A stretch of 64,000 nucleotides of DNA from Bacteroidales bacterium (lineage in GTDB: Bacteria > Bacteroidota > Bacteroidia > Bacteroidales > UBA932): NCBI GenBank assembly GCA_017438975.1, contig JAFRUH010000019.1, positions 12,656 to 76,655 of the forward strand, written 5' to 3'. This document shows, in pieces, positions 9,872 to 63,431 of the stretch. The notes beneath the pieces were generated by a model. That model did no database searches and had not been told where the DNA came from. It worked only from the letters and a program-made list of their open reading frames with translations. Within the stretch, counting starts at the first letter, position 1. Every line of letters starts with the position of its first letter. A program made the position numbers and the translations under genes.

Positions 9872-9872
9872 C

Positions 9873-29201: not shown

Positions 29202-29216
29202 AAAATAATCGCTCGT

Positions 29217-31690: not shown

Positions 31691-31718
31691 ACTAATATAA
31701 TGAGATTATATCATAAAA

Positions 31719-32624: not shown

Positions 32625-32627
32625 GGG

Positions 32628-33368: not shown

Positions 33369-33538
33369 ATTACTTAAACCTTATTACTTTTATTAAACAA
33401 ATCGATAGAAATCAACTTATCTTTTAATACTTAATAATCGAATACACAGCCGTAATAAAGACTGATAATACTAAGGGCAAGAATTCAAACCATGAAAGGA
33501 AATAGATTCCGCCATAAGCAAGAAACAATAAAACCATA

Positions 33539-34174: not shown

Positions 34175-34179
34175 TAATC

Positions 34180-34773: not shown

Positions 34774-34778
34774 TGCTT

Positions 34779-37095: not shown

Positions 37096-37129
37096 AATGA
37101 ACTATTCCTAATTGACAATAAACTATAAA

Positions 37130-41301: not shown

Positions 41302-41309
41302 ACAATATA

Positions 41310-42212: not shown

Positions 42213-42220
42213 TACTTCAT

Positions 42221-43111: not shown

Positions 43112-43120
43112 AAAACTATG

Positions 43121-44275: not shown

Positions 44276-44277
44276 GT

Positions 44278-44982: not shown

Positions 44983-44984
44983 AA

Positions 44985-46100: not shown

Positions 46101-46140
46101 AGGCTAAAAGAATATCCGATATCATTTCTCTTATCGACAA

Positions 46141-46531
46141 TTAAGTAGAGAACCATATATTAAACAAACTACAATCACCTGGAAAGAGACGCATCATCAA
46201 TAGTTTTGTGATCAACTGCAATCCAATAATCTCGTGAGTAAAAAAATCGATCAGCAAAAATATTATCGACCTAATGACCATCGGGAGAATAATCCTGGAA
46301 AGACGTACTTTAAAAAAAGAAATGATAGGTTTCTCCTTTTACATAATCATAGAACCCGATATCATAAAAAAAAGAATCGACGCACCTGCTACAGAAAAAT
46401 AGTTAGTAACAGCGATGAGTAATTCTCCGCCTCCCGTTCCATTGGGGATCGGCGCATGCGTTATTATCACATAAAGACAGGCGAATGAGCGAACCGCATC
46501 TATCCAGAATTCTCTTTGAGTTTTTTTCCAT
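46141..46531 (-). pseudogene. Truncated Acyltransferase_3 pseudogene (absent from ORF track)
   Basis: Hand translation: ATG overlapping the upstream TAA, extra A in an A7 run, then QREFWIDAVRSFACLYVIITHAPIPNG...LFFMISGSMIM*KEK...RLSRIILP...; in-frame TAA at 46339-46341; ends after about 130 codons. Confidence 0.85.
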
Positions 46532-47742: not shown

Positions 47743-47751
47743 TACGAAGAA

Positions 47752-49278
47752 TCAGTAACTCGGCATTAATGATTTAATATAATTCATAAAATCCTTATAT
47801 TGCTCAGAACGGTGAAACGCGAACCAATATAACAGGCATGTCAAGCAAAATGTTATCAGCCCTTTTACTATCATAGACATGAATAATGAACGAATATGAA
47901 TAGTAGAGCAAAGTGAGTAAGAAACAAATAAGCAAATGGCGAAGACGAATGAATAGACAAGTAAGTGCTTAAAATAGTTCCAAAGGCTCTTTTTAAAAAT
48001 GTATTTATAACATAGATTTGGGAATTGCCAAAAACCTATTGATAATATACTGATAGAAGTCGCTAAAAGGACCCCCGTTATACCCAGTTTCTTTACAAAT
48101 AATAGAGATAACACGACATTTATAACTCCCTGCAAAAATGGAGTCCATCGATCTTTTACGAAAATACCCGCCTTTGTTTTAAAAGTTAACGCTGTACTAC
48201 GAATACAATCCAAATAGAAGTTTAGCAGTATCAAACAAACAACTGTATCAGCCATTCTATATTCTGGTCCCAACCACCAATCTATTAATGGAGTAAGGAC
48301 ATTAAAAAGAAGGATTACTGGTATTGATACAAGAAGAAAATTAACGAAAAAACACGTCTTAAAAACAGCGTAAACTTTCTCAGTAGATTCTGAGGCTATA
48401 AGGTTTCCAACACTTGCCGAAAAACTGTCCAAACATTGATTCACCAATGATTTCACCAGACCTGTTATAAGAGTATAATTAGAGAATAAACCTGTAGCTG
48501 CCAAACTTACGAATGATGATATGATGATATTATCAGTTTGGTGCATGAAAAAACCACCAAGTTTATTGATAAAAAGGGCCTTGATATTTGTTATGATATT
48601 TGATTTCGTATTATTGTCGACAGTGTAACGTTCATGAGTTTTAACGTAGGGGAATAGTTGATCTGCCTTGTGAACAACCGCTATATTATATGCTACATTG
48701 AATAGAGACTCAACGACAAGAAATAAAATATAATTCTTTGTGAAATACAAAATCGCCAGTTTTGATATACTAAGCCCAACTTGATAAATAAGATTAATCA
48801 TTGTTAGCTTATATACCTTCTGACTTGCGTTTATCAATGACCACTTATATGCACTGAAATAATTGATAACAGAATTAAAAAGAAAAAGAAAATATACGAC
48901 GCCAACATATCTCAGATTGTTCGCGCCTTTCATAAAATACCCAATAAAAGGATACAAACCAATACCGAGAATGGTGATCCCTATTGCTATCCAAATATAA
49001 ACTCTTCGAAATAACTGTAACAATGCCAGTATCTTTGGACGATTATCTTCTGCCAGTGGTTTATACATATTGTATACGACACTAGTAGCAAAACCACCTT
49101 CCACCAAAGACATTATCCCTAAAATATTGGACAACAGTCCATTAAGGCCAAGATATTCGACACCGACATTATCCACAAATACTTTTCTCGTAACGAAACC
49201 GAGCAACACCATAATTATGGAAACACTCAGTTTGGATATCAGATTCTTTGCAGAATTTTTCGTCCGTGAAGATGACAT
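47752..49278 (-). CDS. wzx: Wzx/MATE-like polysaccharide flippase
   Basis: 12-14 TM; YLGLNGLLSNIL, LYKP-like MYKPLA, TDNIII, WLGPEY. Confidence 0.9.
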   Translation of the reverse strand: MSSSRTKNSAKNLISKLSVSIIMVLLGFVTRKVFVDNVGVEYLGLNGLLSNILGIMSLVEGGFATSVVYNMYKPLAEDNRPKILALLQLFRRVYIWIAIGITILGIGLYPFIGYFMKGANNLRYVGVVYFLFLFNSVINYFSAYKWSLINASQKVYKLTMINLIYQVGLSISKLAILYFTKNYILFLVVESLFNVAYNIAVVHKADQLFPYVKTHERYTVDNNTKSNIITNIKALFINKLGGFFMHQTDNIIISSFVSLAATGLFSNYTLITGLVKSLVNQCLDSFSASVGNLIASESTEKVYAVFKTCFFVNFLLVSIPVILLFNVLTPLIDWWLGPEYRMADTVVCLILLNFYLDCIRSTALTFKTKAGIFVKDRWTPFLQGVINVVLSLLFVKKLGITGVLLATSISILSIGFWQFPNLCYKYIFKKSLWNYFKHLLVYSFVFAICLFVSYSLCSTIHIRSLFMSMIVKGLITFCLTCLLYWFAFHRSEQYKDFMNYIKSLMPSY

Positions 49279-49291
49279 GTTACTTAATAGA

Positions 49292-50443
49292 TCAAATGTT
49301 GTTGGTATTGTTTAGCAACATCCCTAGCATTCCTTGCGCAAAAGGAAGGTACCCTAATTGTGCGGAATAAGAACCTATTGCCTTTGTATCTCCCTGGCAA
49401 AAATCAAGTTTGCCATTCCTCTGCGTCATTTTTTTTAATCTTACTAATAGCCTGTTAAGAGATTCTTGATACCGGCTATCTTTGGTAATATTGTAAGCTT
49501 CATTTATCAATAAACCGCACAAAACAGTTGAAGATCCTTCTGAAGGTCTTCCTTTAATAAAGAGTTGAGAGCCAAATCCACCATCATCATGCTGACATAA
49601 AAGAACATTATCAGCCAAACGAATAATTCTATTGCTGAATTCTAACTTAGATGGATCTTTTTTATCTGTTTCTTTATACAAACAAATCAAAGCAATGATG
49701 TACCATCCTAAACCTCTTCCCCAATCATATATTCCTAAAGGAGCCTTTAGAGAAATACTATATGCATGACTTGGAAATCCCCAATTAGCCAAACAATAAG
49801 AGTCATAATCAAAGAATACTCTCTTTGCTAATTGAGCAGCTTCTAAACATTCATATGCCACAGCATACTTCGCAAGAAAGGGGCAGACAAAACCAAGAGT
49901 ATCGACAAAACGAGTATCAAATTGTCCTTTTTTATATGGAATTGTATCGTTTACTCCTTTTAACTCCACGATATATGAAAATGTTTCATCCATTGATACT
50001 TTTACTGAAACTGGAGAAACATGGCATAGAACAGCATATGATAATAAACCAATCTCTACCGAATTAGGCTTCCGCCTCCAAGAGCCGTGGTCATTAAATA
50101 AAGAAGATAATAAACTATTGATAGAGTTCTCATCATTACAACCTAACAATAGCCCCGCCAACTGCCAATACTGAATATCGGAACTCCGATTCCTCTTGAA
50201 GATCCGGTCAAACAATAAAAGCCTATCTCTATCTTGCCGTTGAACGATCGGCACATGTAACAACCAATGATTAATAACTCTATCAACAGATTTCTTCCAT
50301 TCATCATCTGAAACCCATTGTCCAATATGTATTCTTGCAAACCACTTGGAAAATGCGATAAAAATATCATAAAGAATAATGATTATCGCAACTAAACCAA
50401 AAACAACAAAAAAATATACTAGAAAATTATTCATTGGAAACAA
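49292..50443 (-). CDS. GH88/GH105-like (alpha/alpha)6 protein with N-terminal TM anchor
   Basis: FVDTLG, WGRGLGWY, QHDDGGF, EGSST. Confidence 0.75.
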   Translation of the reverse strand: MFPMNNFLVYFFVVFGLVAIIIILYDIFIAFSKWFARIHIGQWVSDDEWKKSVDRVINHWLLHVPIVQRQDRDRLLLFDRIFKRNRSSDIQYWQLAGLLLGCNDENSINSLLSSLFNDHGSWRRKPNSVEIGLLSYAVLCHVSPVSVKVSMDETFSYIVELKGVNDTIPYKKGQFDTRFVDTLGFVCPFLAKYAVAYECLEAAQLAKRVFFDYDSYCLANWGFPSHAYSISLKAPLGIYDWGRGLGWYIIALICLYKETDKKDPSKLEFSNRIIRLADNVLLCQHDDGGFGSQLFIKGRPSEGSSTVLCGLLINEAYNITKDSRYQESLNRLLVRLKKMTQRNGKLDFCQGDTKAIGSYSAQLGYLPFAQGMLGMLLNNTNNI

Positions 50444-50520
50444 GAATAATTATCAATTCACAAGTCCAACGGATTTACTAGAATTCGGGAATCAAATAAA
50501 CCGTGACCAGGAGGAGAAAA

Positions 50521-51348
50521 CTAGTCAAAAATCTCAAGTTCAATTGAATGCCCTCCCCGCAGAGATTCAGAGGGCAAATCCCTCCAGCGTTCACCGAACT
50601 TCTGTACCAGATACTGCTCAGGATTGTTTGGGGCCAGTAACAGCAGACCTTCAAAAGGAATACGCCGAAGCGGAAAAACCACATCTTTTGTATGAATATC
50701 CTTGAAAGGGACTCCATAACTATAACTCAGTACCCCATTTGATCGATGCCACGACAATAAATGTGCAACAGGGATTAGCATTGTTTTTATTAAGAAACGA
50801 AATGGCCGTGCCATAAATGAGAGGTGATTCCAGAAGCCATTATTCTCGAAGAAAGGGTATAAGACGAAATGCTTGAACATCCATGTTATGGAATTTGAAA
50901 AACATTGAACATTACCTTCATCAATAGGAAAGATATCTATAGCAAGTCCCTTATAAATAAGACGATCCTGAATATAAGAAGAAGCATTATTCTTACTTTT
51001 CAAATCTCTAATCTTATCCCAAAACATGAGATACCATGGGTCGTTATCATGATTCTGAAGAATATAACCGGAATTCACATTCTTATCTAAAAGAATACGA
51101 TGTAGTTTTTCAGCATCTGCTCTCATCATGCAAACGTCGACATCATCATCCCACGGAATGAAACCTTCATGTCGAACTGCACCTAAAAGTGTTCCTGCAT
51201 CCATCCAATACTTAAGATTATTCTTTGTACAGATATCATCAAACCATTCTAACATCTCAACCATTCGGTATTGAGCAAGACGAAGAACAGAGCCCTCGGG
51301 ATTATACTGTTGATGCAGTAAGATATTTATTTCAGAATCTATCTTCAT
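50521..51348 (-). CDS. LicD family phosphotransferase
   Basis: AGTLLGAVRHEGFIPWDDDVD, IDIFPID, FGERWRDLP. Confidence 0.92.
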   Translation of the reverse strand: MKIDSEINILLHQQYNPEGSVLRLAQYRMVEMLEWFDDICTKNNLKYWMDAGTLLGAVRHEGFIPWDDDVDVCMMRADAEKLHRILLDKNVNSGYILQNHDNDPWYLMFWDKIRDLKSKNNASSYIQDRLIYKGLAIDIFPIDEGNVQCFSNSITWMFKHFVLYPFFENNGFWNHLSFMARPFRFLIKTMLIPVAHLLSWHRSNGVLSYSYGVPFKDIHTKDVVFPLRRIPFEGLLLLAPNNPEQYLVQKFGERWRDLPSESLRGGHSIELEIFD

Positions 51349-51350
51349 AT

Positions 51351-52493
51351 TTAGATAATAGATTTGATCGAACGTATAGCTTGCAGGTAAACTGGAATCA
51401 TAGAAACAAGATGATTCCTAATGATGCTTTCATTATCTGTCAACCATAGAAAATCATCTAACAATTGAGTTTCAGACATTATTGATTTGACCGAAATAAC
51501 ATAGTGTTTATCAGTGCCAAATAAATCAATCGCAATACCTCTTGCTTTGATAGAGTAACCTAATACTATCGTTGGAACCATAGTAGAATATGCTGCAATT
51601 GAAGCATGAGTACGAGCCGTAATCATATAACGGCAGTTTGATATTATACTTTTCAAACTTACAGCATTATTATCGGCAATATAGACGATTCGACTGTTTC
51701 CTTTATAATGATTATATATTTCATTTAGTGATTTGCGATCATCACTACTCCCCCAAACCACATGAGGAATAAGAGCTATTTGCATATCAGTATTATTCAA
51801 GACATAATCAATAAGCCTATAGTAATTATTTAATACTATTCCTTTGATTGTTTCATGTTTGATAATCATGGGACTAACATTAATTCCCAAAGTATTACCT
51901 TTAACGAATCCTTTAGGCAATGCGACATCACTTTTTTCCAGTAAGAAAGCAGGATCTGGGACAAGAGAAACATTCTGAAGTCCTCTTTGAATTAATGCCC
52001 GATATGTAAGACTCTCACGTGCATATATATGAGAATAGCGATGCAAATCTAACAGCATTTGATTATCAATAGCATCAGGCTCAATAGAACATCCCCAGAG
52101 AACTATAGGGACATGCATTTTGCTTAATTGCTCATTTATTAAATAAATATAATTCGGTTTTCCATAACAATAGTTATCACCACCAATTGATAATGCGACA
52201 TCACAAGTCTTTGCCGCCTCAAATACTGGACTAAAATGTAATAAATCTAGAGCATTATCCTTATTAAAGAACTGTCTCTGAAAAAAAGCGAGATAGAACT
52301 TTGGGTTTCTATGCGATAACTGGACTCTATCAGGAATACAATTTACTATTTTCCCTAAACCATAGCGAATATCCTCCTCTTGACAAGATGTCATTAAGGA
52401 AAACTCTCCTCCTAGAATAGTCTTCGTAGAGCGAACGATTGCCTCACACCCGTGATTACCACTACCCCCATGCGGATATAATAAAAACTTCAT
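51351..52493 (-). CDS. Polysaccharide pyruvyl transferase
   Basis: GSGNHGCEAI, IGGDNY, ARES, DPAF, RTHASI, YSIKA. Confidence 0.9.
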   Translation of the reverse strand: MKFLLYPHGGSGNHGCEAIVRSTKTILGGEFSLMTSCQEEDIRYGLGKIVNCIPDRVQLSHRNPKFYLAFFQRQFFNKDNALDLLHFSPVFEAAKTCDVALSIGGDNYCYGKPNYIYLINEQLSKMHVPIVLWGCSIEPDAIDNQMLLDLHRYSHIYARESLTYRALIQRGLQNVSLVPDPAFLLEKSDVALPKGFVKGNTLGINVSPMIIKHETIKGIVLNNYYRLIDYVLNNTDMQIALIPHVVWGSSDDRKSLNEIYNHYKGNSRIVYIADNNAVSLKSIISNCRYMITARTHASIAAYSTMVPTIVLGYSIKARGIAIDLFGTDKHYVISVKSIMSETQLLDDFLWLTDNESIIRNHLVSMIPVYLQAIRSIKSII

Positions 52494-53467
52494 TTCTCTA
52501 TAATTCTAAAATACAGATAAAAAAGCCACCACATTCTAAAATGTATTCCAAACTTTATCCATCTTGCACATGAAAAAACATAAGAATAAAGTGTTAGATC
52601 GGCTATTTCATCTATTTGAAGAATTCTTTTAATATAATCGGACGACTGGTTTTTCAATTTGGGGAACAAAAAGATCCCGTCAAATACTATTCCCCACAAA
52701 CGTTGAAAAAGGTATTCGTTCGACACTATACCAGATAATTTTTTTTGAGAATAGAAACTTCTCAAGAGTTTCCACTGGTAATAGTCAATGTCAAATCTAT
52801 CATCACGTATTTTCCCAGATAATGATTGAGGCCCGACAATTCGATAATGATAAAGAACAGTATCGATTGTCGTAATTGATGTAACATGGTTCAGATATGA
52901 GATATTGAACATCAAATCCTCTCCATAGGAACTTGTAATATCAAAACAGATCTTCCACTTACGTATTATTTCCCTTCTATACAACTTGACAACAGGGCCG
53001 AAAAGTAAGTAACTCCTATTCAAGTCAGTAAATAATTCAACAGTATCAGGTGATAGAATAAATGATGATCTATTACAAGAAAATAAAGTTTGATGGCCAT
53101 CTGAAAACTCCTGGGCTAAGCCACAAACTGATAAATCTGATTGGCGATCAGTCAATGCAAATAATAATTCCTTAAGATAATCTGGATCGACCCAATCATC
53201 ACTATCTATAAATGCTATATACTCACCACGAGCAACCTGAATTCCTTTGTTTCGAGCCGAAGATACACCCAAATTATCTTGATGAATAATAACAAAACGG
53301 GGATCTCTATGAGAATACTCTTTACAAATCTCAAGAGATTCATCATCAGATCCATCATCAACCAATATGCATTCAAAATCCTCATAGCTCTGAGAAATGA
53401 TAGAGTCTAAACAGTCTCGAAGAAATTGAGCAGCATTATAAATAGGTACTATTACTGATACGATCAT
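52490..53467 (-). CDS. Glycosyltransferase family 2
   Basis: SVIVPIYN, VDDGSDD, GVSSARNKG, FIDSDD. Confidence 0.92.
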   Translation of the reverse strand: MIVSVIVPIYNAAQFLRDCLDSIISQSYEDFECILVDDGSDDESLEICKEYSHRDPRFVIIHQDNLGVSSARNKGIQVARGEYIAFIDSDDWVDPDYLKELLFALTDRQSDLSVCGLAQEFSDGHQTLFSCNRSSFILSPDTVELFTDLNRSYLLFGPVVKLYRREIIRKWKICFDITSSYGEDLMFNISYLNHVTSITTIDTVLYHYRIVGPQSLSGKIRDDRFDIDYYQWKLLRSFYSQKKLSGIVSNEYLFQRLWGIVFDGIFLFPKLKNQSSDYIKRILQIDEIADLTLYSYVFSCARWIKFGIHFRMWWLFYLYFRIIEK

Positions 53468-54021
53468 ACTATATAACCAATACTATTCTCAAGTTCCTGT
53501 TTCATCCTCTCTTTTTTCTCCTCTGTAATAGAACTTATTAAATAATCCGATTCATATTTAATTCCTTCCTGCAACTGTCTTTTACGTTTTTGCATATAAT
53601 CTTCGTATGTGCATAGTACATGACATGGATTCCCTGCTGCTACCATGCCATCTGGAATTGAATGAGTAACAATAGAACCGGCTCCAATGATACAATCATT
53701 ACCTATTTTTACTCCAGGGAGAACGATAGATCCTGCCCCAATAAAAACATTATTTCCAATGGTTGTTTTTCTTATTACAGTATATCCAAGAGTATTTTTA
53801 GTACTAGCATCATGAGCGAGTATATGAACTCTAGGGGCTAGAGTAACTCGATCTCCTATTGATATTAACCAGGCATGACTAATATCCAATAAAACTCCAG
53901 ACTGTATATTACAATCTGCTCCAATCTTCATTCCTGAATCAATCGCTCGTTCTAAAACTGACCGATCATCTATTCCGGCCAACTTTCGAAGCCATTTAAT
54001 AAACTTATTAATGATAATCAT
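53464..54021 (-). CDS. Hexapeptide-repeat O-acetyltransferase
   Basis: IGDRV, HDAS, IGNNVFIGAGSIVLPGVKIG, AAGNP; ATGA overlap with the upstream stop. Confidence 0.9.
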   Translation of the reverse strand: MIIINKFIKWLRKLAGIDDRSVLERAIDSGMKIGADCNIQSGVLLDISHAWLISIGDRVTLAPRVHILAHDASTKNTLGYTVIRKTTIGNNVFIGAGSIVLPGVKIGNDCIIGAGSIVTHSIPDGMVAAGNPCHVLCTYEDYMQKRKRQLQEGIKYESDYLISSITEEKKERMKQELENSIGYIV

Positions 54022-55154
54022 AATATAGACTGAAACTTTGTGATGAGTTCCGATAGCTTTATCGAATCTCCTCTCCAAACTGCTTTCTTCCTCAATAACA
54101 ATAACTTGCCTCGATTTTGTAATAATTCCTCCAACCCTCGCTCTAAAGAATTGCTATCGTTATCGACAATCATTCCACATTCTCCTCCATTCAATAATTC
54201 GTTAACTCCCGAGCACTTTGTTGTTATCACTGGGACTCCCAGTATCATAGCTTCTGTTAATACGGTACTGTAACCTTCCGATCTTGAAGAGCAAATAAAT
54301 AGATCTGATTCTAATAAGTCGGGATATGGATTCTCAAGATAGCCAAGAAGATGAACATAGTCAGACATATTATGACTATCAATATAAGACTGCAAATTCC
54401 GTAATTGGGGACCTTCTCCAATGATAATTAAATCAAACTGGTAACCTTTTTCAAATAGATGTTTTGCAATGGGTAATAAACGATCATACCCTTTCTGCTC
54501 AACAAGCCTCCCTATACTGATTAATTTAATTCTTCTATGCCGAAAAACTGGATCTGCAGCTGTCGAGAGTTTCCTAATTGACTGATCATCAATTGGATTA
54601 TAAAGGACCATGAGACTATCGAGTTCACCATACACTTTAAGCATCGACTCTTTTACATTCTCGGAAACACATACAATACGATCGTATTTCTGATATGATT
54701 GCTTTTCTTCCTCATAACTCTTATATGCTACACTTGACCAATGATTACGATCCATATCAATGTGTACCCAGGCAATCTTGCGGCAAATAGATCTACAGCC
54801 ACTTACGATACGAGTCGCATACCCTTCAATAAATGCAATTACTGTATCATATCGTCCATGAACGAATAAAGAATAAAACAAAGCAGGAGATGCATGTTGA
54901 TACAGAAATAACTTTATTTTATTCTCTACTCTTATCAATAAATTCCCGATTCTCGATGTATTCCTACCTCTTGTGCTATTATAAATATACGAATAATTAA
55001 TCCCCTTCGGATATAGTTCATTCAGTTGATCCCTGACAACACTGCATAGAGTAACTTCATATCGGGATAGATCTATATTATTTAGAATTGTTTGAAGAAC
55101 TTTTTCTGCTCCTCCCCCATATAAACTATTGCTCAAAAAAAGAACTCTCTTCAT
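54018..55154 (-). CDS. Glycosyltransferase family 4-like
   Basis: GGGAEK, WVHID, GRLVEQKG, SSRSEG. Confidence 0.9.
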   Translation of the reverse strand: MKRVLFLSNSLYGGGAEKVLQTILNNIDLSRYEVTLCSVVRDQLNELYPKGINYSYIYNSTRGRNTSRIGNLLIRVENKIKLFLYQHASPALFYSLFVHGRYDTVIAFIEGYATRIVSGCRSICRKIAWVHIDMDRNHWSSVAYKSYEEEKQSYQKYDRIVCVSENVKESMLKVYGELDSLMVLYNPIDDQSIRKLSTAADPVFRHRRIKLISIGRLVEQKGYDRLLPIAKHLFEKGYQFDLIIIGEGPQLRNLQSYIDSHNMSDYVHLLGYLENPYPDLLESDLFICSSRSEGYSTVLTEAMILGVPVITTKCSGVNELLNGGECGMIVDNDSNSLERGLEELLQNRGKLLLLRKKAVWRGDSIKLSELITKFQSIL

Positions 55155-56278
55155 GATAATACAAACTCTATCAACTGCATAATCCTTTCAATAGAAAACT
55201 CTTTCCCCCTCTCTTCTGCTTTCTTCGAATAATACTCTAACTCATTCGAAGATAATAATTGCTTGATTCCTTCATACAATGCTTCTTCACTATTAGATGT
55301 TATAAGACCATATTGGCCGTCCTGTAATAACTCATTCATGCCGGAACAATTAGTCGTTATCACAGGAACTCCAAGAATTAGAGCTTCAGTCACAGCAGTA
55401 CTATATCCCTCACTTCTGGAGGAACAAATAAAAAGATCAGATACCTTAAGATATGGATAGGGATTAGGACAAAAGCCCATCAAACTGATATATTTTTGCA
55501 TGTTATTCTCCTCTATCATCCGATTTAGTTTTGAATGATCTGGACCTTCTCCTAAAATATTCAACACAAAATCATATCCCTCATCATGTAATCGTTTTAG
55601 TATTGGAATAAGTCGATCATATCCTTTTTGATGAACAAGCCTACCAATTGATATAAGATTGATATTACCTGTTAGAAAATGACTCCTCTCACAGTTCTTC
55701 CCACTTAGATTTAATATTTCGTCAGAATCAATCGGATTATATAAAACCCCAATGTTATCAAAACCCTTACAAAACTCACTCATTGAATCTTTAACAGATT
55801 TCGAAACACAAATAATTTTGTCGAATTTTTGATACGCCCTTATTTCTTCTTCGCGCGAATGGTAAACTAAATCTGTCCAATGGTTAATCATTAAATCAAT
55901 ATGGACCCATGCTATTTTTTTTGAATGGCGATTCGTGCTATGAGATAGCAATTTCGTAGAAAAACCTTCAATAAAAGCGACCTCAATATCATTCCGCTTT
56001 GGAACAAAAAGAAGGTATACCAGTTTCAATGGCAAAATATTATAAACCAGTTTATATTTAACCTTCCCAAACAGCGTATTCGTTTTATTAAGGATATATT
56101 TATAATTAACACAGGACTTTACCTCACATATATATTCTCCAGTATTTACAATACTACAGACTGTCACATTATATTTTTCCTGATTAATATTCCTCACTAA
56201 TGTTGTGAGTACTTTTTCTGCCCCACCTCCACTGAGTGATTCAATAATAAAAAGAACTTTCTTTTTGTTATAACTCAT
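55151..56278 (-). CDS. Glycosyltransferase family 4-like (paralogue of 54018-55154)
   Basis: GGGAEK, WVHID, GRLVHQKG, SSRSEG; start at MSYNKK. Confidence 0.9.
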   Translation of the reverse strand: MSYNKKKVLFIIESLSGGGAEKVLTTLVRNINQEKYNVTVCSIVNTGEYICEVKSCVNYKYILNKTNTLFGKVKYKLVYNILPLKLVYLLFVPKRNDIEVAFIEGFSTKLLSHSTNRHSKKIAWVHIDLMINHWTDLVYHSREEEIRAYQKFDKIICVSKSVKDSMSEFCKGFDNIGVLYNPIDSDEILNLSGKNCERSHFLTGNINLISIGRLVHQKGYDRLIPILKRLHDEGYDFVLNILGEGPDHSKLNRMIEENNMQKYISLMGFCPNPYPYLKVSDLFICSSRSEGYSTAVTEALILGVPVITTNCSGMNELLQDGQYGLITSNSEEALYEGIKQLLSSNELEYYSKKAEERGKEFSIERIMQLIEFVLS

Positions 56279-58655
56279 TGTCGAATTGATAAATAAATGT
56301 TCTATAATGCTCCTTAAAACTGGCCTTTTGTCCACACTTATTATCATGAAAATTCACTACCCGAGTTAAGTAATGAAACCCATAACGCTTTAAAACATCA
56401 TCATTGGAAGAGTGTCTCCAATCAGCAATACCAAAACCTGCCGTTTTGAAAGTATTACTAAGCACGTCACTATTTATATTATTGTAAATCACGACTCCAG
56501 CATCAGTCATATTGTCATAAAAAAACAACGTATAAACGCCAAAAAATAGCCGCCCTATTGATGTATTTGTTCGCGAAAAATGACAATGATTGATAACTAG
56601 GTCTTTAGCAAAACTATCTTCATAATTTATATGATAGTTCGTGGCTCCAACCATAAAAACAGGGATAACTGTACCACGATAGTTTTTCGAAATATTGCTT
56701 TTACTAAACGAACAATTCCTAATGGTATTATAATTACTGCCTCCGGAAATCCCTCCTCTATGATTATCATGAATTTGGCAATTCTCAATAATACAATGAC
56801 TAGATATCAGATCTGAAATAGTTGCACTATGCTGGATTCCCTCTTCTGGAACTACCTCATCGTACCACGACTGTATTTTAACGCCTGTTTCATTAGGCAA
56901 TAATGAGAAATAATCCAAATATGATGAATGAATGATTCTTAATGGTTGTTCTGTGGACTCTTTCTCATTAAAAGTCAGAATATCAATATTGTGGTAATTA
57001 TTGATAAGTCTCGTGTAACCAAGATTATTATTAATAGAAAACACTCTTTTTTCTGCAATTCTTTCAATAGTCTGGAGACCTTTTCTATAATGGTTTGTAA
57101 GTTTCAAATAATTGGAAATAGTACATCTCTCTTTATTCTCATTGTCTTTTACTATCTGACCTTCCTTTTCGACGAATTTTCCATATTGAGCTTTACCACT
57201 CCAGGTCATCACTGGTGTAGAATAGTTCGAGTCATAACTCCGATACCAATTCCCAAATTGAGAAACGGAGATTCCATCGGCCATAAAGCCGCTAAGATCA
57301 AGATGATGTATACGAATATTCTGACAATACGCAGACAAAGCAAACGCTCTGCTATTCTCAAGGTTCCTTTCTGCTCCTTCATCATAATCACGTAAAGCCC
57401 TATCACCGACCATCTTGGCATCATGAATCTGTAAATTTATGCAAGCAGCGATAAAGAAAAGCGTTCCGCCTTGAGCATAAGGCTTATCAAGATTGAGCGT
57501 ATAATACTTTGATTTCTTCTTACTATCTAAGATGAGATAATAAGTGGCGCCACCAAAATCAATATCGAATTTATCGAGGTCTTGAATCAGTACAATCGGC
57601 CCCTCCTGAGGTTTCTCATTTTTTGTCGTCCTCGGGGTGAAACAGTAGTCGTTCTTCGGAAATCTTATGCCGTCGTAGCCGTTGCGGTAGGCCCACTGGA
57701 TGGCTTCGGTGAAGCCGACGCCGTTCTGGTACATCAGGTCGTACTGGCGGTCGGTGTAGTGCCCGTCTGCACCCTTTTTCTGGTAGCCGGGAGTAATGCC
57801 AAACTTCTTCAGATCAACAACATAGACCTTCTTCGGAGCGGAGGTATCCCAGGGAAAGACCGGGTCTTCATGGACCCCCCAGAGATCGACGAGGGTCTCA
57901 TAATACTCGCCCGTGACCTTGACCTTGCTGATGCGCGTCTCTTTCGAAATTCCGTAGATCGGCGTCATCCGCGTCTGGCCCATCACGAGCGTCCCGTTCC
58001 GGAGCTCGCCGTTTTCGAGGTCCAGGACGGACCCGTACGGCATCGTGACGGCCTTGCCGGCAAGGTCGAAGGTGCCTTCGATGATGTACCTGCGGCACCG
58101 CTGATTCATCATCGCCTGGGTCAGGACCTTCCCGTTTCCGCCCTTCAGGACGACCCGCTCGAGTCCTGTGATATCCTTCGTCACCCCGAGGTCCGGACCG
58201 ACGCCCCTCGCAGAGGTCCGGGATACTCCGGTTGAGCTTTCTGAGCCCGGGACCGTTGTCCTGGGAGCCGGGACGGACATCCCGGAAGAATTCGCCGCCG
58301 CTCCCGAGGACCTCGTGGCAGTTCCCGCCGTTCCGGAGGTTGCAGCGCCTTGTGGGAGAGGCCTCGCAACTTTCCCGGAAGTGGTTCCCGTTCCGGAAGC
58401 CGTTCCCTTAGTGGAAGCCTTATTCATCGCCGACAGCTCCGCCAGGGATATCTCCTTCACCACCCCTGTCGAGTTCTGGTTCCCGGACTCGGCCCGGGGC
58501 TGGGTCTGCGCCTTTACCGTCTCCCCCGCCTCCTGCGCACTTCGCAGCGCCGCCCCCTGCCCGCAGGCGAGGACGAAAAGAGCCCCTGCGGCGCATACTG
58601 CGATGCGTCGTAGAAGAATGGATCCAACTTGAAAAATCAAAATGCTAAACCTCAA
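56268..58655 (-). CDS. Large probable lipoprotein with right-handed beta-helix (pectate-lyase-like) repeats
   Basis: VLAC lipobox-like site, S/T/G/A-rich linker, YDGIRFPKNDY, NLQIHD, FMADGI, IENCQIHDNHRGG. Start uncertain (TTG 58655 or 58640; no ATG). Confidence 0.7.
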   Translation of the reverse strand: MRFSILIFQVGSILLRRIAVCAAGALFVLACGQGAALRSAQEAGETVKAQTQPRAESGNQNSTGVVKEISLAELSAMNKASTKGTASGTGTTSGKVARPLPQGAATSGTAGTATRSSGAAANSSGMSVPAPRTTVPGSESSTGVSRTSARGVGPDLGVTKDITGLERVVLKGGNGKVLTQAMMNQRCRRYIIEGTFDLAGKAVTMPYGSVLDLENGELRNGTLVMGQTRMTPIYGISKETRISKVKVTGEYYETLVDLWGVHEDPVFPWDTSAPKKVYVVDLKKFGITPGYQKKGADGHYTDRQYDLMYQNGVGFTEAIQWAYRNGYDGIRFPKNDYCFTPRTTKNEKPQEGPIVLIQDLDKFDIDFGGATYYLILDSKKKSKYYTLNLDKPYAQGGTLFFIAACINLQIHDAKMVGDRALRDYDEGAERNLENSRAFALSAYCQNIRIHHLDLSGFMADGISVSQFGNWYRSYDSNYSTPVMTWSGKAQYGKFVEKEGQIVKDNENKERCTISNYLKLTNHYRKGLQTIERIAEKRVFSINNNLGYTRLINNYHNIDILTFNEKESTEQPLRIIHSSYLDYFSLLPNETGVKIQSWYDEVVPEEGIQHSATISDLISSHCIIENCQIHDNHRGGISGGSNYNTIRNCSFSKSNISKNYRGTVIPVFMVGATNYHINYEDSFAKDLVINHCHFSRTNTSIGRLFFGVYTLFFYDNMTDAGVVIYNNINSDVLSNTFKTAGFGIADWRHSSNDDVLKRYGFHYLTRVVNFHDNKCGQKASFKEHYRTFIYQFDNEL

Positions 58656-59127
58656 CGGCCTCGAGAAAATGCAATTCTCTCAGCGATGCTGTGCTATGGA
58701 AAGACAATTGGTCAAACAGCTTATATGCCTTCAACTGAATGATGGTCGCTTCCTCGGACAATTCTCCGTTCTCGTACATGTTGATGGTCAGATAGAGCCG
58801 GTCATTCGCGACCGGACCCATAACCAGGTTATAATCATGGTCCCGACGGAGTTTTCTGCATCCGACGATGAATTGAAGCCACTCCCGGTCCACTCCGTTG
58901 AACCGGCGAACTTTATATTTCGGGTTATCCAACAAGGACTCATCGAATTCAAAAACGGATACAACAGCCCGTTCCGACCCGCTTCGTTCTTTCCGGATAT
59001 GGGCCCATCGCTCGGCCTGTTCGAAACTGGTCGTAGCATAGAAACCCTTTCCGAAATCCGTGTTGGGACGTCCTCTTGAAATCAAGGGACGCCGAACTGC
59101 AACCGTGGAACCGTGATACAGTTTCAT
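58645..59127 (-). CDS. DUF3990 family protein (ADP-ribosyltransferase-like fold)
   Basis: LYHGS, DFGKGFY, A..WA, DLVMGPVANDR-like, QLSFHS. Confidence 0.82.
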   Translation of the reverse strand: MKLYHGSTVAVRRPLISRGRPNTDFGKGFYATTSFEQAERWAHIRKERSGSERAVVSVFEFDESLLDNPKYKVRRFNGVDREWLQFIVGCRKLRRDHDYNLVMGPVANDRLYLTINMYENGELSEEATIIQLKAYKLFDQLSFHSTASLRELHFLEAVEV

Positions 59128-59546
59128 CGCCTTTTCTCTATGAAATGGACGATATCCTGCAGGACGAAGTCAAGATCCTGCGTATGGAGGAAATCATAAT
59201 TATCGAGGACGAAATCATCTGCATGGTATCTTTCAAAAAGGGCCATTGCTTGCAAGGACGTCATTCCGACCTTCTCCGCATACCTTTCAAGGCAGAACAC
59301 ATAGAACTCGAATGCGGCGAATCCAACTACTCTGTCACTCTCCTTCCGCTTTTTTTCGAACTCCTCGTATAGCGATTCGGTATCGAGATACCACCATTTT
59401 GCTTTTTCGTTATACAGTTCTGCCGCCATAGGATTGATGTAGATATAAGTCAATGCCTCTTGCAGAGAAATGCGTTTTCTCTTCGAGATGAAAACAGCCA
59501 GGTGGGCTATCTTGATGGGAACGATGTTCTGCTCGATTTTGGCCAT
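59124..59546 (-). CDS. Tandem DUF3791-like protein
   Basis: C-terminal half FYVFCLERYA..G...MALFERY...YDFLHTQD..FV..DI is DUF3791-like; N-terminal half shows a similar helical pattern; 4-nt overlap with DUF3990. Confidence 0.72.
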   Translation of the reverse strand: MAKIEQNIVPIKIAHLAVFISKRKRISLQEALTYIYINPMAAELYNEKAKWWYLDTESLYEEFEKKRKESDRVVGFAAFEFYVFCLERYAEKVGMTSLQAMALFERYHADDFVLDNYDFLHTQDLDFVLQDIVHFIEKRR

Positions 59547-59549
59547 GAC

Positions 59550-59700
59550 ATGGATCTAAACAATTACTACTAAATCCATTCCTCGGCCCATTCAGCACAG
59601 ACCAAGGGAAGGACAGGCTACGACAGTTTATCTGTCTCGACGGGAATCCGCTATCCAGCGCACCCCCGGCAGCCCGGTAATGATCCTTCGCGCACGCGCG
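59550..59700 (-). ncRNA. Candidate structured 5' leader RNA (three-way junction plus two hairpins)
   Basis: Hand-folded stems GAAGGA/UCCUUC, CGGGCUGC/GUAGCCUG, CGGGGGU-CGCU/AGCG-AUUCCCG, GACAG/CUGUC, CCUUGGUCU/GGGCCGAGG, AUGGAUUUAG/UUAGAUCCAU. Confidence 0.6.
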
Positions 59701-59712
59701 ATGATTAACAAG

Positions 59713-59744
59713 CAAATATACAGTAAATATCTGGAATATTCAAA
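59713..59744 (-). promoter_or_regulatory. Canonical promoter heading the DUF3791-DUF3990-polysaccharide run
   Basis: TTTG (59741-59744), 20-nt spacer, TATATTTG (59713-59720). Confidence 0.8.
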
Positions 59745-59800
59745 TATCTTCCAACCAAAGCCCTTCCCGGTGAAGAAACCGCAGAAGGTAACTGTCACAT

Positions 59801-60886
59801 TTACGCGCGCCCGCCTGTGAGAACAGCAAGGGTTCTCGGGGTCCATTTCCGCATCAGCGAGTAGCAGGCGAGGATAGCCAGGACCGTTAGAAGGGGCGCA
59901 GCAAAGTACTTGAGAATCAGGGCAGCCTGCGAGGAAGAAGGGAATATCCGATTAAGATAAATGACGATACGGGGCAGCACAATCGTCGCATGCATCGCAA
60001 AGACCATAAAAACGCTGCCGGACAGCAGTTCCCGCTCCCGGATCCGGTTGCTTCTGATCAGATGGGCCGCCGTACCGACGACAGAGGGGCAGGCGAACAG
60101 GGCGAAGCAACGGTGCATGATCCCAAAAAGCCGGTAATCGTTACCGAAAGAGAGGACCATGACGACCCAAAAGGGTATGGACACCAGCGCAAGGGGGATT
60201 CTAACCTTCTCGAAGGATTCGGAAAAGTCCATCCTCCGGATCGTGAAAAGGGCCCCTGCCGCAAAGAACAACAGACCGGAAATCTCGAATCCCGGGACCT
60301 TGATCCACCAGTCCGGGACATAGAGCACGGTCAAAGCAAGCAGACCGACCACTCCCGATTTTCTGACGAGAAGAAAAATCAGAGGAGCAAAGATTGCCAG
60401 AAGCATCAGGTTCCGGATGAACCAGAGCGGAGCGTTGTGAGGCAGCCCAAGGCTTCCCGTACCCCAGAAAACACGCCAGCCGCCGATCCCCTGGAACCAG
60501 GCACCGATATCGGGAAACGCTCCCCAGAGAAGTGCCGCTCTGTTTTCGGAAAGGAACTGGACAAGGATTGACAGGATATTCCAGATCAGATAGGGAACGA
60601 GCAGAGTCCGCACCCGTTTCTTGAGTTTCCCGATCCATACGGAAGTATTCCATTCTTCAAGGCCCCTGAAGAAAAGAAAGCCTGAGATAAAAAAGAAAAT
60701 GGGCACTGCGACAACGCAGATACCTTCGGAGACTGAAATCCTGACGGTGTCGTAGAATCCGTTCTGCCAGACTACCCGTTCAAGCCCTTGGAGCGGCTTT
60801 CCGAATGCATGGACAAACACGACGAGAACCACGCAGAAAAAGCGCAGCCACTCGATGGTCCTGGACGAAACGGAACTGTCTTTCAT
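59801..60886 (-). CDS. Acyltransferase_3 family membrane O-acyltransferase
   Basis: IEWLRFFCVVLVVFVH, AVPIFFFISG, KRVRTLLVPYLIWN, LWFIRNL; start at MKDSSV since the longer TTG start overlaps the -7 element at 60911-60918. Confidence 0.88.
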   Translation of the reverse strand: MKDSSVSSRTIEWLRFFCVVLVVFVHAFGKPLQGLERVVWQNGFYDTVRISVSEGICVVAVPIFFFISGFLFFRGLEEWNTSVWIGKLKKRVRTLLVPYLIWNILSILVQFLSENRAALLWGAFPDIGAWFQGIGGWRVFWGTGSLGLPHNAPLWFIRNLMLLAIFAPLIFLLVRKSGVVGLLALTVLYVPDWWIKVPGFEISGLLFFAAGALFTIRRMDFSESFEKVRIPLALVSIPFWVVMVLSFGNDYRLFGIMHRCFALFACPSVVGTAAHLIRSNRIRERELLSGSVFMVFAMHATIVLPRIVIYLNRIFPSSSQAALILKYFAAPLLTVLAILACYSLMRKWTPRTLAVLTGGRA

Positions 60887-60927
60887 TTCCTTCAGCGATA
60901 CTCGTTCATACAAATATAGCTTCGATG

Positions 60928-60955
60928 TACCTCTGGTGTTTATTAACCAGAGGTA
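60928..60955. repeat. Perfect 10-bp inverted repeat
   Basis: TACCTCTGGT-N8-ACCAGAGGTA. Confidence 0.85.
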
Positions 60956-61005
60956 AATTAATTAACCCGCTGATTATCGGGATGATAGCCTCCATGAGAC
61001 ACTGT

Positions 61006-62175
61006 TCACTTCGCGAGCATGTCGCGGGAATCGAGGATGTCTTTCTTGAGGGCGAGGACACGGGCGGCGCTTTCTTCAATGCGGGAGACGGGAATGGTAC
61101 CGGCCTTGACCGCGGCTTCTACATTGTCATAGGCGGCTTCATAGTTTTCGGGAGTGAGCAGGATGTCCACGCCGGCGAGAATCGCCTGGATCGCCGCGTC
61201 GCCGGGACCGTATTCCTGGGTGATGGCGCCCATCCCGAGAGCGTCGGTGATGATGAGCCCCTTATACCCGAGTTCTCCCCGGAGCTTTTCGGTCAGCATC
61301 AGTGGGGAAAGCGTTGACGGAACGGAACTTCCGGTAACGTTCGGAGCACTGATATGGGCCGTCATGATCAGGCGTGCGCCCTCTTCTATCCCCTTTCGGA
61401 AGGGGACCATCTCGCAGGCTGCAATCTCCTCCCAGGTCTTCAGGGTCTCGGCATAGCCGTAGTGGCTGTCCGCCTTGGTGTCGCCATGGCCCGGAAAATG
61501 CTTGAGGCATCCTTCGACCTTAGAATCCTGGAGTCCGTTCAGGAATTCCCCGACCATGTCCGCGACAAGCCCCGGATCGCTCCCGAACGAACGGTTTCCG
61601 ATCACGACGTTCTCCGGATTGGTGTTGACATCGGCGACCGGAGCGAGGTCTACATCGAACCTGTACCGGTATAGATAACTCCCGATCGTCGAGCCGGCAT
61701 TGAAGGCGTTCCGCTTGTCCCCGGTCGCTCCGACCGCTCCCATGCTGGAATACTTGATGACGGAGAAATTGCTGTTGTTCGCGATGCGGGCTACCGACCC
61801 GCCTTCTTCGTCTACGCAGATGAAAGGATAGTTCCCGAGCTCATGGAGATAACGGTTGAACTGCTGTATCTGGCTGGGATTCTTGATGTTGCCGGCGAGG
61901 AGGATGAACCCGCCGCAAGGGTATTTTTCAAATCGCTCCCTGAACTCGGGATAGCCTGCCGTCACATAGCCGGTCGCGTCTGTGACAGACTCGGGAGCGA
62001 TGCAGAAAAGCTGGCCGATCTTCTCGTGGAGGGTCATGGACGCAAGGTCCTTGAGTTCATAGAGTTCCGGTTCTTCGACGACGGGGACGGGCTTCGGGAC
62101 CGGGACCGGATCCGGTTTCTGGCAGGCCGTCCACAAAAGGAGGACGGCGGAAAAGAGATAAATGAAACGTTTCAT
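61006..62175 (-). CDS. GH3 beta-N-acetylhexosaminidase (NagZ-like) lipoprotein
   Basis: Lipobox WTAC, Pro-rich linker, VDEEGG.V.R, APVAD, KHFPGHGDTKADSH, ITDALGM. Confidence 0.88.
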   Translation of the reverse strand: MKRFIYLFSAVLLLWTACQKPDPVPVPKPVPVVEEPELYELKDLASMTLHEKIGQLFCIAPESVTDATGYVTAGYPEFRERFEKYPCGGFILLAGNIKNPSQIQQFNRYLHELGNYPFICVDEEGGSVARIANNSNFSVIKYSSMGAVGATGDKRNAFNAGSTIGSYLYRYRFDVDLAPVADVNTNPENVVIGNRSFGSDPGLVADMVGEFLNGLQDSKVEGCLKHFPGHGDTKADSHYGYAETLKTWEEIAACEMVPFRKGIEEGARLIMTAHISAPNVTGSSVPSTLSPLMLTEKLRGELGYKGLIITDALGMGAITQEYGPGDAAIQAILAGVDILLTPENYEAAYDNVEAAVKAGTIPVSRIEESAARVLALKKDILDSRDMLAK

Positions 62176-62180
62176 GGACC

Positions 62181-63431
62181 TTAATCGCGCTCGAAAAGAT
62201 CGCGGGTATAGACCTTGTCCCGGACGTCGTCGAGGATGGGGTCATATCGATTGACGATGATGCAGCCGCTGCGACGCTTGAAATCCGCGAGGTCATTGAC
62301 GACCTCGGATCCGAAGAAGGTCGATCCGTCGGGAAGGGTGGGTTCATAGACAATGACCCGAGCGCCCTTGGCCTTGATCCGCTTCATGATGCCCTGGATC
62401 GCGCTCTGGCGGAAATTGTCGGAGCCGGTTTTCATGGTCAGGCGGTAGACTCCGACGGTGACCTCACGCTCGCTCCCCCGGTCGAAAGCGTTCCGGGCGG
62501 AATAGCCGTAATACCCGGCTTTTTCAAGGACACGGTCCGCGATGAAATCTTTCCGGGTCCGGTTGCTCTCGACGATCGCACCGATCAGATTCTCAGGCAC
62601 ATCCTTGTAGTTCGCGAGGAGCTGCTTGGTGTCTTTCGGAAGACAGTAGCCGCCGTAACCGAAGGATGGGTTGTTGTAATGGGCACCGATGCGGGGGTCC
62701 AGGCAGACACCCTCGATGATCGAACGGGTGTCGAGCCCCTTGACTTCGGCGTAGGTATCGAGTTCATTGAAATAGCTCACGCGAAGGGCAAGGTAGGTAT
62801 TGGCGAAGAGCTTGACGGCCTCCGCTTCGGTCGCGCCCATATAGAGGACCGGGATGTCTTCCTTGAGGGCCCCTTCGACGAGAAGGCCGGCGAAGATCCG
62901 GGCTTTTTCCGCAAGGCGTCCTTCATCCCCTTTCGGGATTCCGACGATGATCCGGCTCGGGAACAAATTGTCATACAGGGCTTTGGATTCGCGGAGAAAC
63001 TCCGGGGCGAAGAGGATATTCCGGCTGCCGGTCTCGGCGCTGATCCGCTCGGTGAATCCGACCGGGATGGTCGACTTGATGACCATCACGGCGTCCGGAT
63101 CCGCCGCGATGACGGTCCGGATAACGGTTTCGACGGCAGATGTGTCGAAGTAGTTCCTGACGGGGTCATAGTTCGTCGGGGCCGCGATGATGACAAAATC
63201 GGCACCGCGGTAAGCTTCGGAGGCGTCGAGGGTCGCACGAAGATGCAAGTCCTTCTCTGCCAGGTATTTCTCGATATACTCGTCCTGGATCGGAGACTGC
63301 TTCCGGTTGACCGTTTCCACCCGTTCCGGGACGATATCGACCGCCACGACGTCATGGTGTTGAGACAACAGCGTCGCAAGACTCATCCCGACATATCCCG
63401 TTCCGGCAACTGCGATTTTCATATTCTTCAA
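62181..63431 (-). CDS. ugd: UDP-glucose 6-dehydrogenase
   Basis: [37 protein letters not shown]. Confidence 0.96.

Follow-up and report, generated by a model that had tools for sequence, protein, structure and literature searches.

Cassette switching is known at the rfb locus of E. coli and Salmonella, with galF and gnd, and at the Klebsiella K locus. It is similar at the pneumococcal cps locus, where cassettes are switched by homologous recombination in the conserved flanking genes (PMC5850285). Other polysaccharide loci encode a beta-helix glycanase of their own. WceF of Pantoea stewartii is exported and has a tailspike-like fold (PMC7949094). VexL, from the Burkholderiales Vi-antigen loci, is periplasmic (PMC6003464). 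Both act on the polymer of their own locus. The locus studied here also encodes a beta-helix protein among its biosynthesis genes.

We analysed a window of 64,000 nucleotides from a Bacteroidales bacterium. As in capsule and O-antigen switching, conserved flanks enclose a variable biosynthetic centre of low GC, and breakpoints in a flanking gene yield mosaic alleles. The variable region has atypical GC, its breakpoints are supported, and relatedness is discordant on either side of them. Nevertheless, the upstream breakpoint falls within a coding sequence, and the distal 450 codons of that sequence are part of the variable set. Thus, the protein is conserved in one half and type-specific in the other. 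Also, GC3 steps unusually sharply (0.8 to 0.3), and the step recurs in several rumen Bacteroidia lineages. We consider it probable that this ORF is a functional mosaic and that homologous recombination formed it where a swappable capsule or exopolysaccharide cassette has its upstream edge.

The cassette and its edges

29200..57620, minus strand: low-GC (0.31-0.42) polysaccharide cassette of Wzx/Wzy type, about 28.4 kb (composition; Pfam, NCBIfam)
56268..58655, minus strand: 795-codon ORF; its product is exported, has a right-handed beta-helix and is homologous to phage tail spikes (ORF, AF2, Foldseek, sequence match)
58645..63431, minus strand: host-GC upstream flank with UDP-glucose dehydrogenase, GH3, acyltransferase_3, DUF3791 and DUF3990 (Pfam; flank comparison)

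The beta-helix ORF is the first gene of the cassette. By Pfam and NCBIfam, the glycosyltransferases are five GT4/GT1, three GT2 and one of Caps_synth type. The other genes encode four LicD proteins, a pyruvyl transferase, a hexapeptide acetyltransferase, an EpsG polymerase-like protein and an initiating sugar transferase. A gene of 508 aa is a candidate flippase by its position; this copy has no family match. The upstream flank (58645..63431) is common to relatives that carry other cassettes. The conserved genes 5' of the family are UpxY-Wza-Wzc-CpsB in most lineages and Ugd-GH3 in this one. On the far side, a 619-aa ORF (27217-29076) is absent from four MAGs carrying relatives.

Host-GC DNA (0.55-0.60) flanks the low-GC island on both sides in the same contig, and the composition changes abruptly at either end. 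Sharp edges are also expected if the island had inserted at a specific site in the gene and brought a replacement 3' end that restored the frame. Phages do this at tRNA genes. However, the island edges show no tRNA, att-like repeat or integrase, the junction varies among loci from codon 335 to codon 472, and the interior of the island is itself mosaic. Integrase-mediated insertion was rejected on the first two grounds, and we regard site-specific entry as extremely improbable.

The GC switch and the junction within the gene

57627..58205, minus strand: N-terminal globular part with host GC, codons 151-343, GC3 about 0.8 (DNA identity, dS)
57651..57935, minus strand: family-wide conserved block, codons 241-335 (pairwise aa identity)
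57575..57645, minus strand: recombination junction and GC3 change point, codons 337-360 (GC3 interval, max-chi2, base-level view)
56271..57626, minus strand: low-GC C-terminal part, codons 344-795, GC3 0.31 (GC3, identity by segment)

The initial annotation had placed the cassette edge inside an intact ORF, from counts of 36, 30, 25 and 18 G+C per 60 bases at 57661, 57601, 57541 and 57481. These counts were reproduced exactly. The frame is unbroken through the junction, and the ORF is open for all 795 codons. The maximum-likelihood change point of GC3 lies at codon 343 (window position 57626), where GC3 falls from 0.75 to 0.31. Its 2-lnL interval covers codons 341-360 (57632..57575). GC1 and GC2 change little across the junction, so amino acid composition was rejected as the source of the shift. 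The log-likelihood gain is 80.1, compared with a maximum of 9.3 among 1000 codon shuffles and with 16.9 for the next best of the 36 ORFs in the window. The switch within the gene is real and far beyond chance. This agrees with the earlier division into about 350 host-like 5' codons and about 440 cassette-like 3' codons, and the two parts also have different relatives.

Relatedness alone places the junction at the same site as GC3. The max-chi2 breakpoints fall in codons 337-354 (57596-57645), with values of 171-229 and permutation p<=0.002. At base level, the sequence diverges abruptly from locus L005 at codon 344 and from L004 at codon 354. The crossover of a capsule cassette is placed to within about 10 codons inside a working gene. 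The AF2 model shows a low-confidence loop at the junction (residues 344-349).

Immediately 5' of the junction lies the conserved block. Its mean amino acid identity is 82-92% over all locus pairs and goes down to 53% at codon 341. It is 75-98% identical to all 77 homologues. The block is likely the homology substrate for the upstream crossover, and recombination in a conserved 5' region, as had been proposed, is supported by its position.

Shared sequence of this kind could also mislead an assembler. It might have used the block to fuse an allele of high GC with one of low GC, or to fuse two strains that co-occur. With 33 contigs and 3.6% contamination, the genome is probably a MAG. The pairing of this N-allele with this cassette is known from one assembly, and co-occurring strains with other N-alleles exist (L003). 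Nevertheless, host-GC DNA at both sides of the island means that a chimera would need two misjoins. Third positions mostly differ between high-GC and low-GC alleles, which leaves them without long k-mers in common. Moreover, 10 other loci, which come from different samples and assemblers, show the same switch within the gene, and the frame is unbroken and shows purifying selection. We regard an assembly chimera as very improbable. In favour of a functional mosaic, dN/dS is 0.08-0.12 in all segments of the gene and about 0.11 in the C-part; this comparison shows purifying selection on both parts.

Mosaic segments, relatives and cassette type

58563..58655, minus strand: signal peptide with lipobox (..FVLAC, Cys31) (translation; homologue starts)
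58206..58559, minus strand: disordered linker rich in Ser/Thr/Gly/Ala, codons 33-150 (pLDDT; segment identity)
55240..56710, minus strand: secondary mosaic segment, the last ~145 codons of the ORF and the first GT4 gene (150-bp block identities)

The homologues P0003 and P0012 begin at MRRI..VLFVLAC, and translation probably begins a few codons 3' of the TTG.

The nearest alleles to codons 151-343 belong to L004, L005, L006 and L010, and those loci bear other cassettes. As far as about codon 330 they are 87-98% identical in DNA to this gene, and beyond it 55-65%. The C-part is closest to alleles that head similar cassettes. The homologues are not uniformly conserved over their full length. Six share 91-98% amino acid identity in the N-part and only 40-53% in the C-part. 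In others, the C-part is the best shared and the N-part reaches about 50%. One MAG has two copies, with N-parts 97% identical and C-parts 46%; the cassettes of these copies have no common gene at >=60% identity.

Of 13 related loci from independent assemblies, 11 show a GC3 switch within the gene, located between codons 335 and 472. These switches sit just 3' of the conserved block, whose codons 241-330 show 82-92% conservation in the family as a whole.

The host-like front is not uniform. The dS of codons 151-343 against other species is 0.23-0.32, and that of the flanking genes is 0.77-1.07. This value is 3-4 times lower, so the N-part is not simply vertical host DNA; by this comparison, it has itself been exchanged between species. 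The 5' half had been expected to be conserved among conspecific strains, and this is not literally true: L003, the only clearly conspecific strain, has a different N-part allele. The linker is lineage-specific, and its DNA is 95-100% identical to L003.

Additional breakpoints lie near codons 150 and 650. In 150-bp blocks, the secondary mosaic segment is 56-79% identical to L003, and both sides of it are 86-97% identical. The dS values by segment of the gene are 0.04, 0.78, 0.25 and saturated. By these identities, the gene has at least four segments rather than two. The description as a chimeric gene therefore stands as to mosaicism, and its two-part form does not. We rejected a simple chimera of two parts whose front descends vertically, because of the N-part dS, the L003 allele and the extra mosaic segment.

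The C-part had been predicted to vary with cassette type, and it does. Across 12 loci, the more alike two C-parts are, the more alike their cassettes (Mantel r=0.78, p=0.0002). In the same loci, the N-part shows no such correlation (r=0.18, p=0.10). A first Spearman test, with 8 loci, was not significant, owing to ties.

Physical linkage alone also predicts co-variation of the C-part and the cassette, and the Mantel result is expected from it. The C-part might simply lie in the recombining tract, be exposed at the surface and diversify under phage or immune pressure, with no match to the glycan. The lipoprotein signal and long stalk of this lineage's protein fit such exposure. Two hypervariable patches in the C-part (codons 461-530 and 721-795) also favour this reading, as does the secondary mosaic segment, smaller than a cassette, which spans the 3' end of the gene and the neighbouring GT4 gene. 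However, dN/dS of about 0.1 shows no elevation, most lineages have an ordinary signal peptide without the lipobox Cys, and the C-part has diverged as deeply as the cassettes. The protein is also homologous to glycan-cleaving tail spikes, and invariant acidic residues suggest a retained active site (see below). We consider linkage with diversifying selection only to be unlikely.

We favour homologous recombination at the cassette edge with a glycan-matched C-part. The beta-helix gene is located exactly where the conserved genes of the locus stop and the type-specific glycosyltransferase genes start. Its block of ~90 codons (241-335), near-invariant in all lineages, would receive the crossovers, which may resolve inside it or just 3' of it. 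Because the crossovers are placed at the block, the 5' third of the gene would stay with high-GC genomes or circulate among them, and codons ~344 to 795 would come in with the low-GC cassette. The far crossover would lie at about 29.2 kb. The C-part may form a glycan-binding or glycan-cleaving groove that must match the polymer of the cassette. By analogy with WceF and VexL, the protein could be a self-specific glycanase or lectin. A single exchange would then change the polymer and its processing protein at once. If the C-part is glycan-matched, rumen bacteria can change their sugar coat and the matching protein in one recombination step.

Fold, phage homology and possible function

In the AF2 model, short stacked strands form a beta-helix that spans residues ~166-795, and most of its pLDDT values are 80-95. 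Residues 1-163 have pLDDT below 50. The Foldseek matches in the PDB are GH110, AlgE4/6, GH28, tailspikes and RbmB (E 3e-9 to 1e-3), and the best viral fold matches are crAss-like tailspikes. Family models scored below their cut-offs: 20.4 bits against 23.6 for NosD (Pfam) and 17.5 against 19.45 for TIGR03804 (NCBIfam). Several homologues have a precomputed PF13229 assignment.

The likeness to tailspikes noted before is literal homology. Residues 170-772 are 33% identical (E 4e-81) to a 1052-aa tail protein from a viral contig (L018). This protein adjoins terminase and portal genes on the contig, of 96.5 kb, and has a PHROG tail-spike match. The tail spike of Bacillus phage Deep Blue is 27.6% identical (E 1e-27). 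A family profile matches residues ~171-230 to the crAss001 tail fibre gp22 (E 1.6e-11); a single-sequence search of solved structures returned nothing. Residues ~159-251 are 37-44% identical to crAss001 gp22 (PDB 7QOJ) and Carjivirus communis gp63. However, only the N-proximal module matches these phages. A PHROGs scan of the beta-helix protein itself gave no family. On these alignments, the homology of the protein to phage tail spikes is genuine. At 33% identity, the full-length phage homologue gives no indication of a recent exchange.

As in module exchange among phage tailspikes and receptor-binding proteins, the N-proximal part is conserved and the C-part that follows it varies, and recombination takes place directly 3' of a conserved block. 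Compared with the phage genes, this one is chromosomal and lies among polysaccharide-synthesis and housekeeping genes, with no phage genes nearby. Its N-terminus has a signal peptide with lipobox and a disordered linker in place of a virion-anchor domain, and the junction is inside a continuous beta-helix, not at the hinge between anchor and helix.

The position in a biosynthesis locus and the export signal are those of a self-glycanase. All homologues inspected have a signal peptide. Elsewhere in the family, the gene is directly 3' of Wza-Wzc-CpsB. There is no sequence match to WceF or VexL, and neither is among the top 50 fold matches. We know of no report of either as a mosaic junction gene.

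The acidic residues D364, D377, E429, D460, E679 and D680 do not vary in the alignment and have counterparts in the phage homologue, which suggests a retained active site. From its predicted fold and phage homology, the protein probably acts on glycans. The co-variation with the cassette and the acidic residues are indirect support for binding or cleavage of the polymer of its own locus, and the C-part may be glycan-specific. In that case, its sequence could be a compact marker of capsule type in metagenomes, and the proteins would be a source of type-specific reagents for binding or cleaving glycans.

A more speculative reading, which we hold only tentatively, is that the family is a domesticated Bacteroidales phage tail spike, now a type-matched protein for processing or tethering the capsule, built into the polysaccharide loci of certain rumen Bacteroidia. 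Its N-part, bound to the lineage, would attach to the cell or to the export machinery, and its cassette-bound C-part would read the glycan. The pool of C-parts might be shared with the tail spikes of phages aimed at the same capsule types. With this design, one recombination would switch the polymer and the specificity of the enzyme together.

The family would connect capsule processing in the host with capsule recognition by phages. It is an uncharacterised family of exported proteins, encoded where the conserved part of Bacteroidia polysaccharide loci meets the variable part. Literature searches gave no description of it in Bacteroidales capsule loci. The family is rare, occurring in 1 of 401 genomes sampled across the order and in 2 of the 41 formed by the window's genome and 40 relatives. 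It recurs as a junction gene in several uncultured rumen Bacteroidia lineages.

Composition of the junction gene and its cassette

The junction gene, which encodes an exported beta-helix protein, is the 5'-most gene of a low-GC island (~29200 to ~57620). GC is 0.31-0.42 in the island, versus 0.55-0.60 on the contig to either side. This island represents a polysaccharide cassette of the Wzx/Wzy type, with the following features.

56268..58655, minus strand: junction gene, open over 795 codons
Glycosyltransferases: nine (five GT4/GT1, three GT2, one Caps_synth-type)
LicD proteins: four
Modifying enzymes: pyruvyl transferase and hexapeptide acetyltransferase
Polymerase-like protein: EpsG-type
508-aa protein: no family match, putative flippase
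Initiating sugar transferase: present

The 508-aa protein is taken to be a putative flippase because its counterpart genes in related loci match polysaccharide-flippase families. Several island genes (33539-34773, 38909-41301, 46531-47742) have a GC3 of 0.40-0.50, against 0.23-0.35 in their neighbours. The cassette is thus a mosaic in its own composition. L004, a related bacterial locus whose cassette otherwise differs, contains a gene with 84% DNA identity to the GT1 gene at 46531-47742.

The initial annotation had described a chimeric gene, and its GC counts per 60 bases (36, 30, 25, 18) were reproduced exactly on recount. By codon position, GC3 is 0.75 upstream of codon 343 and 0.31 downstream. 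The 2-lnL support interval of the change point covers codons 341-360 (window 57632..57575). Third positions carry the change; GC1 and GC2 barely move, which rules out amino-acid composition as its source. The log-likelihood gain was 80.1, against a maximum of 9.3 in 1000 codon shuffles, and the second-strongest gain among the 36 ORFs of the window was 16.9.

At the far edge, near 29.2 kb, the GC shift is completed within 100 bases. The resident gene there (619 aa, ORF 27217..29076) has a GC3 of 0.26 in its first ~23 codons (29007-29076) versus 0.67 in the rest. The downstream edge of the cassette may therefore reach into a gene start too.

Separate histories along the gene

The junction protein has 77 full-length homologues, and their identity to it is sharply discordant along the length. 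This bears out the proposal that the two halves have separate histories.

Identity of homologues to the junction protein, by residue range
P0001 (nearest homologue): 99% (33-150), 82% (151-250), 96% (251-345), 96% (346-450), 94% (451-600), 75% (601-795)
P0002, P0003, P0004, P0011, P0012, P0016: 84-98% (151-345), 40-53% (346-795), except P0002 with 68% at 346-450
P0005-P0010 and most others: ~50% (151-250), ~80% (346-450), ~63% (rest)

The DNA tells the same. Identity to the related loci L004, L005, L006 and L010 is 87-98% until about codon 330, then 55-65%. Base by base, L005 is near-identical to the window up to codon 343 and diverges abruptly from codon 344; L004 does so at codon 354. Max-chi2 analysis used triplets of the window, one of these four loci and L003. 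The breakpoint lies at codons 337-354 (window 57596-57645) in three of the four, coinciding with the GC3 switch, and at codons 303-307 in the L006 triplet (permutation p <=0.002 in all four). The AlphaFold2 model places the junction in a hydrophilic loop of low confidence (residues 344-349). With a dN/dS of 0.08-0.12 in all segments, purifying selection acts on both halves, and the chimera is a working gene.

We compared 12 related loci with sufficient sequence, taken from ENA MEGAHIT and SPAdes contigs, Logan contigs and rumen 'RUG' MAGs (independent samples and assemblers). Counting the window, 11 of 13 loci show the in-gene GC3 step, from 0.60-0.83 down to 0.28-0.35. Its position, in query codons, ranges from 335 to 472 and is mostly 335-365. 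The exceptions are L012, without any compositional contrast, and L009, with a weak step only. Over all locus pairs, amino-acid identity peaks at 82-92% (codons 241-330) and is 53% at codon 341; codons 461-530 and 721-795 are hypervariable.

An assembly chimera is an improbable source of the junction. Host-GC DNA flanks the island on both sides within one contig, the same step recurs in 10 other loci of independent assemblies, and the ORF is unbroken and evolves under constraint. Strains with other N-alleles do co-occur (e.g. L003), so the window's pairing of N-allele with cassette is to be taken as probable.

The mosaic is finer than two parts. L003 is conspecific with the window: the upstream 2.5 kb are 97-100% identical (dS 0.00-0.04). 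Past this point identity shifts stepwise.

Window versus L003
Codons 151-345: DNA identity 81-88%, dS 0.78
Codons 346-650: DNA identity 90-97%, dS 0.25
Last ~145 codons and first GT4 gene (56710-55240): DNA identity 56-79%, dS saturated
Remaining cassette: DNA identity 86-96%

The expectation of a 5' half conserved among conspecific strains does not hold literally, although the separate histories of the halves stand. The N-part (host-GC front) has a dS of 0.23-0.32 to L004, L005 and L010, far under the 0.77-1.07 measured for Ugd and GH3 in their flanks. Exchange among high-GC species has thus also involved the host-like front. In the window (55151-56347) a single 398-aa ORF encodes the first GT4 glycosyltransferase, whereas L003 (4466-5584) has two ORFs (199 and 172 aa) for it. 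This gene belongs to the segment of greatest divergence, and in L003 it may have been disrupted or exchanged.

Locus architecture and exchange with the cassette

In seven loci of other lineages, UpxY, Wza and Wzc directly precede the junction gene, and five of these loci have the CpsB phosphatase there as well. The window's lineage has Ugd and GH3 as preceding genes, with toxin-antitoxin-like pairs inserted between. Variable glycosyltransferase genes come after the junction gene in all these loci. The family thus sits where the conserved part of the locus gives way to the variable part.

The small toxin-antitoxin-like pairs are variable insertions between GH3 and the junction gene. DUF3791/DUF3990 is present in the window (58645-59546) and L003, HigB/HTH in L004 (2529-3200), and both in L005 (7805-9781); L010 has no DUF3791/DUF3990 pair.

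The 3' half was predicted to vary with cassette type, and it does. Among the 66 pairs formed by 12 loci, the more alike two C-parts are (codons 480-795), the more alike are the genes in the downstream 10 kb (Mantel r 0.78, p 0.0002). For the N-part (codons 151-330) the values are r 0.18 and p 0.10.

Locus pairs (cassette score, 0-100: mean best % identity of downstream ORFs)
L006 / L010 (both MAG RUG13467): N 97%, C 46%; dissimilar, score 17, no genes common at >=60%
L007 / L008: N 97%, C 49%; dissimilar, score 8
Window / L012: N 65%, C 66%; similar, score 48, first five genes in same order
L006 / L009: N 70%, C 59%; similar, score 50, 5 of 10 genes at >=60%

RUG13467 holds two junction-gene copies (L006, L010), one preceded by a UpxY-like gene and one by Ugd-GH3.

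Homologous recombination is the best explanation, because no integrase, tRNA or att-like flanking repeat was found with the island and junction positions vary among loci. The upstream crossover would resolve within the conserved block that peaks at codons 241-330 or directly 3' of it; the far crossover lies near 29.2 kb.

The C-part may be matched to the glycan of its cassette. Four points favour this: it co-varies with the cassette, the protein is homologous to tail spikes that cleave glycans, acidic residues are invariant and matched in the phage homologue, and other polysaccharide loci encode beta-helix glycanases of their own, namely WceF (PMC7949094) and VexL (PMC6003464). Physical linkage by itself would give the same co-variation with no glycan matching; we consider this rather improbable.

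The encoded protein, its phage relatives and its distribution

The N-terminus carries a signal peptide closing in a lipobox (..FVLAC), then ~120 disordered Ser/Thr/Gly/Ala-rich residues. This lipobox and stalk (window codons 1-150) are confined to the window's lineage; most family members (compared: P0005-P0010) have an ordinary signal peptide without the lipobox Cys and a short N-terminal region. The globular body (residues ~165 to 795) is predicted by AlphaFold2, from a 26-sequence family alignment, to be a right-handed parallel beta-helix (mean pLDDT 70.7 overall; body mostly 80-95). With Pfam and NCBIfam beta-helix models the protein falls just under the cut-offs. Foldseek matched solved structures of GH110 galactosidases, AlgE epimerases, GH28 enzymes, phage tailspikes and RbmB lyase; crAss-like tailspikes were the top matches among viral models.

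The IMG/VR viral contig L018 (96.5 kb) encodes a 1052-aa protein with 33% identity to residues 170-772 (E 4e-81), adjoined by terminase and portal genes. Its gene (7449-10607) lies two genes downstream of the portal gene. This phage tail protein is homologous to the bacterial family over the whole body, but it lacks the bacterial insertion at residues ~252-282 and has ~290 additional C-terminal residues. Residues 273-739 also match the tail spike of Bacillus phage Deep Blue (E 1e-27), and crAss-like phage tail proteins share 37-44% identity with residues 159-251. The family profile also matches crAss001 gp22 (PDB 7QOJ, E 1.6e-11). The acidic residues D364, D377, E429, D460, E679 and D680 are invariant in the family alignment and matched in the phage homologue.

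Module exchange in tailspikes is already well known. So is cassette switching via conserved flanks (e.g. PMC5850285). Our literature search found no published description of the junction-gene family.

The family is rare. Among 5.8 billion proteins it accounts for 77 clusters (90% identity), and among 185,579 species genomes for six loci in five rumen MAGs. Two members of a 41-genome set carry it, namely the window's genome and a single one of its 40 relatives; of 401 genomes sampled across the order, one does, again the window's. The C-half alone as query gave 120 clusters at 50% identity; many matches are proteins of 880-1800 aa with the C-half at other offsets.
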